IMG/VR virus record: IMGVR_UViG_2654587569_000003
Origin: a virus
Lineage: Duplodnaviria; Heunggongvirae; Uroviricota; Caudoviricetes
DNA length: 38,765 bases
Reading direction: 5' to 3' (one strand)
Shown: piece after piece, positions 36,382 to 37,419 of the stretch
Numbering within the stretch: the first letter of the stretch is position 1
How the letters are laid out: each line of letters opens with the position of its first letter
Translations under genes and position numbers: made by a program
The notes under the pieces: generated by a model
The model's input: only the letters and a program-made list of their open reading frames with translations
Databases searched by the model: none
Told to the model about the DNA's origin: nothing

Positions 36382-36410
36382 AAAACTCTCCTGTTATTTC
36401 GAGCAGAAGG

Positions 36411-36424
36411 GTAACAATAGTTAC
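36411..36424. promoter_or_regulatory. Operator palindrome GTAACAATAGTTAC (OR-type site 1)
   Basis: Perfect GTAAC-N4-GTTAC in repressor/cro intergenic region. Confidence 0.55.
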
Positions 36425-36458
36425 ATAACAATGTCAACCATAGCAACATCACTTGGTA

Positions 36459-36472
36459 GTAACATTGGTTAC
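36459..36472. promoter_or_regulatory. Operator palindrome GTAACATTGGTTAC (OR-type site 2), abutting repressor start codon
   Basis: Perfect GTAAC-N4-GTTAC ending 1 nt before ATG 36473. Confidence 0.55.
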
Positions 36473-37147
36473 ATGAAAAACACTATCAGCGAACGTATTC
36501 GGAATCGTCGAAAAGACGTTGGATTAACCCAACAGCAGGTTGCGAAAGCAATCGGCATATCTCGTGTATCCGTAACAAAATGGGAAAATGGCTCTTCAAA
36601 ACCTGACGGTGAGAATTTGTATCTACTGTCAAAATTGCTTTCCAAATCTCCTGAATGGATTCTTTATGGAAAGGACTGTCACGATAAAACCGATGATCTG
36701 CGTCTGAATCAGTACCCTTACATTAGTGACAACATCGCCCGGTTGCCCGTTTTAACGTGGGAACAGGCTGGTTATTGGGATATGAGTTGTCCAGTAACCA
36801 AGATTCCTGGTATTAATAACTGGGTTGATGTCATGACAAAAACCGCTGAAAACTCTTTTTTATTGCATGTTGAGGGAGATGCGATGACAAACTCTAACGG
36901 CCTCCCAACCATCCCCGACGGATCTACCGTGCTGATCACACCATGCTCAAGTAACATTAGAGAACTGGTGGGAAAAATAATCTTAATCCAATTGGAAGGA
37001 ACGCCAAACGTAACACTAAAAAAAGTTGCGATTGACGGACCAAACATCTATTTGTTGTCACTGAATCCGCTTTACAAACCCATCGAACTGAATGGTGGTT
37101 ACACCATTAAAGGTAAAGTTTCACAAATACATCAATACTTAGACTGA
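36473..37147 (+). CDS. CI-like repressor (N-terminal HTH, C-terminal S24/LexA-like peptidase domain)
   Basis: MKNTISERIRNRRKDVGLTQQQVAKAIGISRVSVTKWENG resembles P22 C2 N-terminus; no SD, so probably leaderless; track ORF starts earlier at TTG. Confidence 0.8.
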   Translation: MKNTISERIRNRRKDVGLTQQQVAKAIGISRVSVTKWENGSSKPDGENLYLLSKLLSKSPEWILYGKDCHDKTDDLRLNQYPYISDNIARLPVLTWEQAGYWDMSCPVTKIPGINNWVDVMTKTAENSFLLHVEGDAMTNSNGLPTIPDGSTVLITPCSSNIRELVGKIILIQLEGTPNVTLKKVAIDGPNIYLLSLNPLYKPIELNGGYTIKGKVSQIHQYLD

Positions 37148-37152
37148 GTCAG

Positions 37153-37178
37153 AACCCGCATTCATTGCGGGTTTTTTA
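37153..37178 (+). terminator. Intrinsic terminator after repressor gene
   Basis: AACCCGCA-TTCAT-TGCGGGTT followed by TTTTAT. Confidence 0.7.
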
Positions 37179-37221
37179 TGCCCTCAAATATACCTTTTGC
37201 AACATTGTATTGACTCGAAAG

Positions 37222-37235
37222 GTAACTCTTGTTAC
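37222..37235. promoter_or_regulatory. Operator palindrome GTAACTCTTGTTAC (OL-type site) with TTGACT 6 nt upstream
   Basis: Third perfect GTAAC-N4-GTTAC; TTGACT at 37210..37215. Confidence 0.5.
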
Positions 37236-37419
37236 CTTAACAACATACCAACCCACCCCGCCCCACAGAACGCAGGGAAATACTTCGAGTTACCCGGCAG
37301 TGGTCAGGGGTTAAGTAGCCAGCCCGAGGCGTAAGAACATGACGGCAGGGTTCAACTTTAATAACTATGCAGCAGGTTTTTGTTCCGCTACCCCGGCGTT
37401 AAGGGGAAATGAGGTCAGC

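Follow-up and report, generated by a model that had tools for sequence, protein, structure and literature searches.

The immunity region described here lies in a 38,765-nucleotide stretch of DNA (IMG/VR record IMGVR_UViG_2654587569_000003, hereafter the window) and belongs to a structurally complete lambda-like prophage of Escherichia coli. It contains a gene for a CI-type repressor of 224 residues (36473-37147, plus strand) and, diverging from it across 91 bp, a cro-like gene of 71 codons (36166-36381, minus strand; Pfam P22_Cro, 2.9e-16). We consider it probable that the region works as a lambda-style CI/Cro switch with a leaderless or near-leaderless repressor start, an establishment promoter of the PRE type activated by a YdaT protein, and a repressor whose C-terminal domain does not self-cleave. 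Neither the operators nor the probable leaderless start is unusual; the noteworthy part is a fixed allele with alanine in place of the nucleophile serine (Ser-to-Ala) of the repressor, found in a complete and very common prophage.

Operators and promoters

The motif GTAAC-N4-GTTAC matched exactly three times in the window, against 0.01 matches expected, and none of 100 shuffles reached three or more. A sequence-only reading of the region had proposed these three perfect palindromes as operators, two of them between the divergent genes and the third downstream of the repressor terminator beside a TTGACT, in a layout resembling the right and left operators (OR and OL) of lambda, and these points were borne out. 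O1 (GTAACAATAGTTAC, 36411-36424), the OR1-like site, lies over the spacer and -10 element of a promoter-like sequence reading toward cro. O2 (GTAACATTGGTTAC, 36459-36472), the OR3-like site, abuts the repressor ATG at 36473, with no nucleotide between them. O3 (GTAACTCTTGTTAC, 37222-37235), the OL site, forms the core of a perfect palindrome of 20 bp (AAGGTAACTCTTGTTACCTT) and is located beyond the intrinsic terminator of the repressor gene (37151-37177, plus strand; 10-bp stem and U-run, -15.8 kcal/mol, z -3.9), with the TTGACT (37210-37215) 6 bp ahead of it. The terminator had been missed by the built-in scan, apparently because the U-run was absorbed into the stem, and was found instead by folding. 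When up to two mismatches were allowed, 14 palindromes were detected against 10.5 expected, which is background, and no further near-perfect copies were present in the window. As to a further OL site, inspection by eye gave just weak candidates at 37187 and 37197, each with 6 of 10 matching bases, and none is claimed.

A weighted sigma-70 matrix scan of both strands of the whole window ranked the promoter-like site under O1 first and that under O3 third. The pR-like promoter (36408-36437, minus strand) consists of a -35 TTGACA (36437-36432), an 18-nucleotide spacer and a TGn plus -10 TACCCT (36416-36408), with a predicted start near 36401. The pL-like promoter (37210-37238, plus strand) consists of the -35 TTGACT, a 17-nucleotide spacer and a TGn plus -10 TACCTT, with a predicted start near 37245. 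O1 on pR and O3 on pL lie in identical register, each covering the spacer together with bases one to three of the -10 element; this placement on top-ranked sites argues for a pR reading to cro and a pL reading to the dicB operon, with the operators placed to block RNA polymerase. Among the relatives described below, the pR element TGnTACCyT/TACATT is conserved. These data support the palindromes as the operators of a lambdoid CI/Cro switch, to which the repressor would bind.

Conservation of the operator layout

The window was compared with the homologous immunity regions of 11 other lineages (12 in total), whose repressors are 41-88% identical and which derive from other E. coli types, Salmonella, Kosakonia, Hamiltonella, metagenomes, and the isolated phages ZF40 (Pectobacterium), vB_EcoS-733R5 and mEp390. 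In every lineage with the GTAAC-N4-GTTAC motif some 30 bp separated O1 and the cro ATG, O2 began exactly 48 bp past O1 in every lineage, and O2 directly adjoined the repressor ATG (with 1 nucleotide between in one lineage), while the surrounding intergenic sequence diverged. These positions were kept even where the repressors were just 41-52% identical. Phage mEp390 has the same layout with another palindrome, GTAGG-N4-CCTAC, as expected for a heteroimmune relative. The recognition-helix segment RVSVTKWE was invariant in a 24-sequence homologue alignment, in which the majority of the loci sharing the operator, though not every one, are represented, and this invariance fits a shared operator. 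One to three OL sites were present in the relatives, 13-88 bp past the repressor stop (about 1.1 kb in the Kosakonia relative L012), and the window has one strong OL site.

An alignment anchored on O1 revealed conserved columns, xCAAC-N4-GTxAC, 23 bp past O1. In the window, the corresponding candidate middle site Om (TCAACCATAGCAAC, 36434-36447), which lies over the pR -35 element and would be OR2-like, matches just 6 of the 10 half-site bases; L007, L012 and L016 have a clearer version of it (for instance CAAACAACAGTTAC). The conservation of this degenerate site suggests that OR is probably tripartite and lambda-like rather than bipartite. Relative to the predicted pR start, the operator centres fall at about -16.5 (O1), -39.5 (Om) and -64.5 (O2); those of lambda OR1, OR2 and OR3 fall at about -17, -41 and -64.

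An S24-like domain with alanine at the nucleophile position

The repressor combines a helix-turn-helix (HTH) N-terminal domain (Pfam HTH_3) with an S24-like C-terminal domain, and it aligned with P22 c2 and with lambda cI (2e-14 for the latter). The S24 peptidase domain reported in the sequence-only reading was confirmed by a profile match to Peptidase_S24 (PF00717, 1.8e-16, residues 92-216). The scissile Ala-Gly is retained (EQAGYW, aligned to QAGMF of lambda), as is the catalytic Lys (TLKKV, aligned to TFKKL of lambda), whose column was invariant in 24 homologues. At the nucleophile position, Ser149 of lambda cI (VEGNSMT) aligns to Ala137 (VEGDAMT), encoded by GCG (36881-36883, plus strand), so that the window reads GDAM against GNSM in lambda and GESM or GDSM in homologues. 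Autoproteolysis of LexA and CI has the Ser-Lys dyad as its catalytic centre, and LexA S119A is reported to be non-cleavable (Slilaty and Little 1987). The S24-like domain therefore appears to be catalytically disabled, and the repressor would be non-cleavable in vivo. The sequence-only reading had expected RecA-dependent induction from the S24 domain; with the nucleophile replaced by Ala, the sole allele found among E. coli genomes, that expectation is unsupported.

Within the clade, the column is Ala in the window, in P0001 (97% identical), in P0002 (88%) and in a Salmonella protein (68%), and Ser in P0003 (86%) and P0006 (66%). Ser was present in 17 of the 18 more distant aligned homologues, the exception being P0016, where the motif is degenerate. 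Ala is encoded by GCG or GCA, against TCG and TCA in the sister lineages. Each is a single T-to-G change, and the replacement probably took place twice. With a 40-mer centred on this codon, the Ala allele was detected in 682 of 5,426 complete E. coli genomes, while the same 40-mer with TCG (Ser) was found in none of them. The carriers included sequence type (ST) 131, O111 enterohaemorrhagic E. coli (EHEC), atypical enteropathogenic E. coli (EPEC), and animal and wastewater strains.

To place this change among the nearest repressor lineages, full-length representatives of related HTH+S24 repressors, from clusters at 50% identity, were compared (within proteins P0046-P0194). Nineteen of these 110 representatives lacked the Ser (7 Ala, 6 Thr and 6 other residues), and most of these also lacked the Ala-Gly. 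By this comparison, pseudo-peptidase CI repressors are common and the loss of Ser is not unique to the element in the window, whose repressor looks like an early stage in a trend toward loss of both Ser and Ala-Gly.

Possible induction routes

No repressor above 43% identity to this one was found in 50,697 phage genomes, and at the DNA level just the flanks of the region matched. That no isolated phage carries this repressor is striking for so common a prophage allele, and it agrees with the loss of self-cleavage, although biased sampling could be the cause too. In agreement as well are the lack of an annotated or PHROG-recognised antirepressor and the place of the one strong LexA-like box, both described next.

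If the repressor is indeed non-cleavable, it could be inactivated as in the Gifsy phages, by an antirepressor encoded either in this prophage or, under LexA control, in a co-resident one. Antirepressor-driven induction of non-cleavable repressors is established, including in trans between prophages (PMC3121763), the carriers of the Ala allele are polylysogens such as EHEC O111 and ST131, and the early region of the Kosakonia relative L012 holds ANT/Rha and LexA_DNA_bind genes. Against this, the Gifsy repressors are short and without a C-terminal domain, unlike that of the window; no antirepressor appears in the prophage annotation, nor was any recognised by PHROGs, which was applied to the early-right genes alone (ten open reading frames at about 31-34 kb); and the one strong LexA box is located within a gene for a methyltransferase. 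We regard a Gifsy-type route as fairly unlikely.

That box (AACTGGATATTTTTACAGTA, 26923-26942) was the sole strong LexA-like box in the window in a scan with a matrix built from E. coli SOS boxes, scoring 23.2 against 18.1 for the best shuffle. It occupies codons 3-9 of the gene for an N6/N4 DNA methyltransferase (25901-26950, minus strand), just downstream of a Q-like DUF1133 gene. As a control element for an antirepressor it was rejected, since its position inside the methyltransferase gene leaves it unsupported as an induction route; the phage methyltransferase itself may be SOS-regulated. A second candidate, over the pR start (CTGTTATTTCGAGCAG, 36391-36406), was likewise rejected, as it scored 5.0 against 12.7-26.1 for the training sites and was not conserved in the relatives.

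In L012, whose repressor keeps the Ser, the antirepressor-like ANT/Rha gene and the small LexA_DNA_bind gene are situated in the early-right region (L012 1-857). Both are absent from the prophage in the window.

Repressor start codon

The ATG at 36473 is the only repressor start conserved in all 12 lineages. As the sequence-only reading had noticed, it is not preceded by a correctly spaced Shine-Dalgarno (SD) sequence (best anti-SD pairing, -3.0 kcal/mol), and the stronger values calculated at the repressor starts of relatives arise from GG runs at least 15 nucleotides upstream. The cro starts, which are correctly annotated, show strong SD pairing (-6.4 to -11.1 kcal/mol); that of the window has an AGGAG 6 nucleotides before the ATG (-7.4 kcal/mol). 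A candidate -10 hexamer for a maintenance promoter (pRM), TAACAT (36460-36465, plus strand), lies inside O2, with its last T 8 nucleotides before the A of the ATG. Its T1, A2 and T6 were invariant in 12 of 12 lineages, including mEp390 with TAGGAT, and the invariant T6 sits in the otherwise free spacer of the operator. This arrangement of hexamer and ATG is what a leaderless or near-leaderless start like that of lambda pRM would look like, and it is plausible that the repressor mRNA is leaderless, or has a leader of 1-2 nucleotides, and is made from a weak maintenance promoter.

In RefSeq the repressor is annotated from an in-frame ATG at 36431, a start that the sequence-only reading did not mention, 14 codons upstream, giving a protein of 238 residues (WP_000103685.1). 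If this longer protein were the real product, O2 would lie inside the coding region and the mRNA would not be leaderless at 36473. No stop codon interrupts the frame from 36431 onward, and this ATG is the one picked by PGAP and other gene callers in the close clade. However, the codon overlaps the pR -35 element (TGTCAA on the plus strand, 36432-36437), no SD precedes it either, and the 14-residue extension is missing from homologues of 215-221 residues and from ZF40, 733R5 and mEp390. Its residues are conserved just where promoter or operator DNA is encoded, with 'MST' over the -35 element and 'NIGY' over O2. We consider the longer product quite improbable; judging from these alignments, the RefSeq/PGAP start is probably 14 codons too long (36431-36472).

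A predicted establishment transcript

The gene that follows cro leftward (35744-36169, minus strand) belongs to the YdaT family (Pfam YdaT_toxin PF06254, 2.8e-10; PHROG 163, 'CII-like transcriptional activator', 3e-47). YdaT is the CII analogue of prophage CP-933P (PMC8630535, PMC9986795), in which TTGATT-N6-AATCAA is the footprinted OM element tied to the YdaT-activated PRE promoter (PMC9986795). At the cro/ydaT junction of the window, a putative PRE-type establishment element (TTGATTTTCATGAATCAT, 36159-36176) differs from this motif by one mismatch. It was the only match in the window with up to two mismatches, it is conserved in the relative L010, and it agrees in both motif and position with the footprinted OM site. 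By analogy with CP-933P, it is therefore likely that a second repressor transcript, activated by YdaT, carrying a long leader and antisense to cro, is made during establishment.

Proposed regulation

Under the lambda-style reading that we favour, CI dimers at O1, assisted cooperatively by the weak middle site, would shut pR and with it cro, the YdaT/CII analogue and the replication genes, and CI at O3 would shut pL, from which ydfABC, DicF and dicB, and then exo, xis and int, would be expressed. At higher CI concentration O2 would also be bound and the repressor would limit its own synthesis, a negative autoregulation like that at lambda OR3, while the P22-type Cro presumably competes for the same operators. 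During establishment, YdaT would activate the PRE-type promoter starting near the cro/ydaT junction; during maintenance, the mRNA would start at or beside the ATG at 36473. The C-terminal domain, whose fold is kept, would serve dimerisation or oligomerisation and cooperativity, not RecA-stimulated self-cleavage. Direct SOS induction would then not take place, and induction would follow another route, such as a trans-acting antirepressor, cleavage in trans, or stochastic loss of repression.

Several observations weigh against this reading. No -35 element for the maintenance promoter was recognised, nor any conserved extended -10, and a start at 36473 would place the centre of the middle site near -32, against -42 in lambda, so it is not obvious that activation in the manner of lambda carries over. 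The start chosen in RefSeq is the ATG at 36431. The retained Ala-Gly and Lys could mean that cleavage still occurs, for example in trans, and the absence of the repressor from phage collections may be a sampling effect. The built-in promoter scan returned no promoter in 36100-37500 because it demanded at least four of six matches in each hexamer; it was replaced by the weighted scan, whose sigma-70 matrix has approximate weights and, like the LexA matrix, draws on literature values. Literature searches, which extended to naturally Ser-less S24 repressors, yielded nothing on this element.

A classical lambda-like switch, in which the S24 repressor self-cleaves on RecA filaments and the prophage is SOS-inducible, would be in keeping with the detectable peptidase domain and the conserved Ala-Gly and Lys. 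It is nevertheless very hard to sustain, as the Ser-Lys dyad is the catalytic centre, its Ser is replaced by Ala, and the Ala allele stands alone in the 682 genomes. The notion that the palindromes arose by chance, or are generic repeats without a part in regulation, can be set aside, being in effect refuted already by the conservation data, since such a number is not expected, the sites lie on the first- and third-ranked promoter-like sequences, and their positions are kept across genera while the flanks diverge.

Comparison with known systems

The architecture is standard for lambdoid phages, nearest to lambda in logic, and to CP-933P (YdaT) and Qin (dicB operon) in gene content. Lambda shares with the window the divergent repressor and cro genes, operators over pR and pL, close positions of the operator centres, a repressor start with no SD, a CII-type activator whose site falls at the cro/cII junction, and a two-domain repressor with an S24-like C-terminal domain. 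Differences from lambda comprise the 14-bp operators of another sequence, a Cro of the P22_Cro family, YdaT in place of CII, one strong OL site, a pL that would drive the dicB operon with no N gene evident, and Ala in place of the nucleophile Ser. The repressor thus fails one defining trait of self-cleaving S24 proteins, the nucleophile, and is otherwise CI-like in every testable respect.

The cryptic sister prophage CP-933P/Sp12 of E. coli O157:H7, with PaaR2, YdaS and YdaT, also has a YdaT box at the end of the cro-analogue gene and a division-inhibitor region leftward (PMC8630535, PMC9986795), and its repressor is not self-cleaved in the SOS response, as predicted for that of the window. 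The mRNA of PaaR2, the CI analogue, was demonstrated to be leaderless by 5' rapid amplification of cDNA ends and N-terminal sequencing (PMC8630535), an experimental precedent for the start proposed here. PaaR2, however, is short, has no peptidase domain, uses other operators and is followed by a toxin-antitoxin pair, whereas the window encodes a full-length HTH+S24-like repressor with a single active-site substitution.

As in the window, the repressor gene of prophage Qin of E. coli K-12 (dicA-dicC switch) is followed by a leftward operon of ydfA, ydfB, ydfC, DicF and dicB, which is silenced by the prophage repressor. DicA of Qin is short, without a C-terminal domain, and acts at other operators, in contrast to the 224-residue repressor of the window, and Qin is heavily decayed, while the prophage in the window has full structural, lysis and integration modules.

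In operator sequence the nearest systems are ZF40 and vB_EcoS-733R5, which share the GTAAC-N4-GTTAC operators, the 48-bp spacing of O1 and O2, and the O2 abutting the ATG. The repressors of ZF40, 733R5 and mEp390 are about 42% identical to that of the window and differ in keeping the catalytic Ser (GESM/GDSM); these phages also have a CP76-type or other cII gene and other leftward genes. No published operator analysis of the ZF40, 733R5 or mEp390 immunity regions was found in the literature. On our reading, Gifsy-1, -2 and -3 resemble the window in having a repressor unable to self-cleave, so that any coupling to the SOS response must be indirect, and differ in that their repressors, of about 136 residues, lack the C-terminal domain and their LexA-controlled antirepressor genes are identifiable, none having been found here (PMC3121763).

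Implications

Taken together, these results raise the possibility, which we advance tentatively, that a complete lambda-like prophage family present in about one eighth of complete E. coli genomes has been uncoupled from the SOS response by a single natural Ser-to-Ala replacement in an otherwise intact CI. The replacement recurs in the Salmonella relative, and 17% of the related repressor lineages lack the Ser. If the proposal is correct, such prophages would be blind to the SOS response or induced just by trans-acting factors of other prophages, while CI would keep tight control of DicB/DicF, exo, xis and int. They would then be a naturally occurring case in which to study the stabilisation of complete prophages, or their induction through cross-talk. 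It would also make the annotation 'S24/LexA-family' unreliable as a predictor of inducibility. In 682 complete E. coli genomes, the protein that bears the annotation 'LexA family / S24 peptidase' is missing the nucleophile, so predictions of SOS or antibiotic inducibility for these prophages are likely wrong, which matters because some of these prophages adjoin effector genes in EHEC and EPEC. The analysis further corrects a probable start-codon error in RefSeq, and the GTAAC-N4-GTTAC family, footprinted by conservation and common to ZF40 and vB_EcoS-733R5, enlarges the catalogue of lambdoid immunity types.

Prophage context

A copy of the prophage 100% identical to the window, in E. coli FDAARGOS_1059, displays the entire element, and the full set of modules in this collinear copy shows that the region belongs to a structurally complete lambdoid prophage. 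The copy begins with lambda-like terminase, portal, capsid, tail, J, Lom and fibre genes followed by the lysis genes, and continues with a Q-like gene, tRNAs, nin-type genes, replication, immunity, the dicB operon, exonuclease, excisionase, and an integrase adjoining potC. Collinearity with the window is interrupted only by an insertion of IS679 (IS66 family) near hokD in FDAARGOS_1059 (L001 11632-14335), which is absent from the window (30435-30442). The alignment blocks flanking IS679 have 8 bp in common, as would fit a target-site duplication.

Leftward of cro in the window, the YdaT-family gene is followed by O-like and DnaC-like replication genes. On the other side, the predicted pL operon (37420-38710, plus strand) was identified by Pfam DUF1391 and DicB, by Rfam and by the RefSeq annotation. 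It comprises, all on the plus strand, a ydfA-like gene (37420-37575), a ydfB-like gene (37577-37705), ydfC (37735-37953), the small RNA (sRNA) DicF (38296-38347; Rfam DicF, 76.7 bits) and dicB (38522-38710; Pfam DicB). About 175 nucleotides separate the predicted pL start from ydfA (37245-37420), with no N gene or Rfam element recognised there; in the relative L005, an N_peptide gene occupies the equivalent place. The late and nin regions of the window (24731-24920, 25605-25851 and 30086-30257) include an STnc100 sRNA, two tRNA genes, which the RefSeq copy assigns to Ile and Arg, and a module of the hok/sok type (hokD), all of them usual cargo of E. coli lambdoid prophages.

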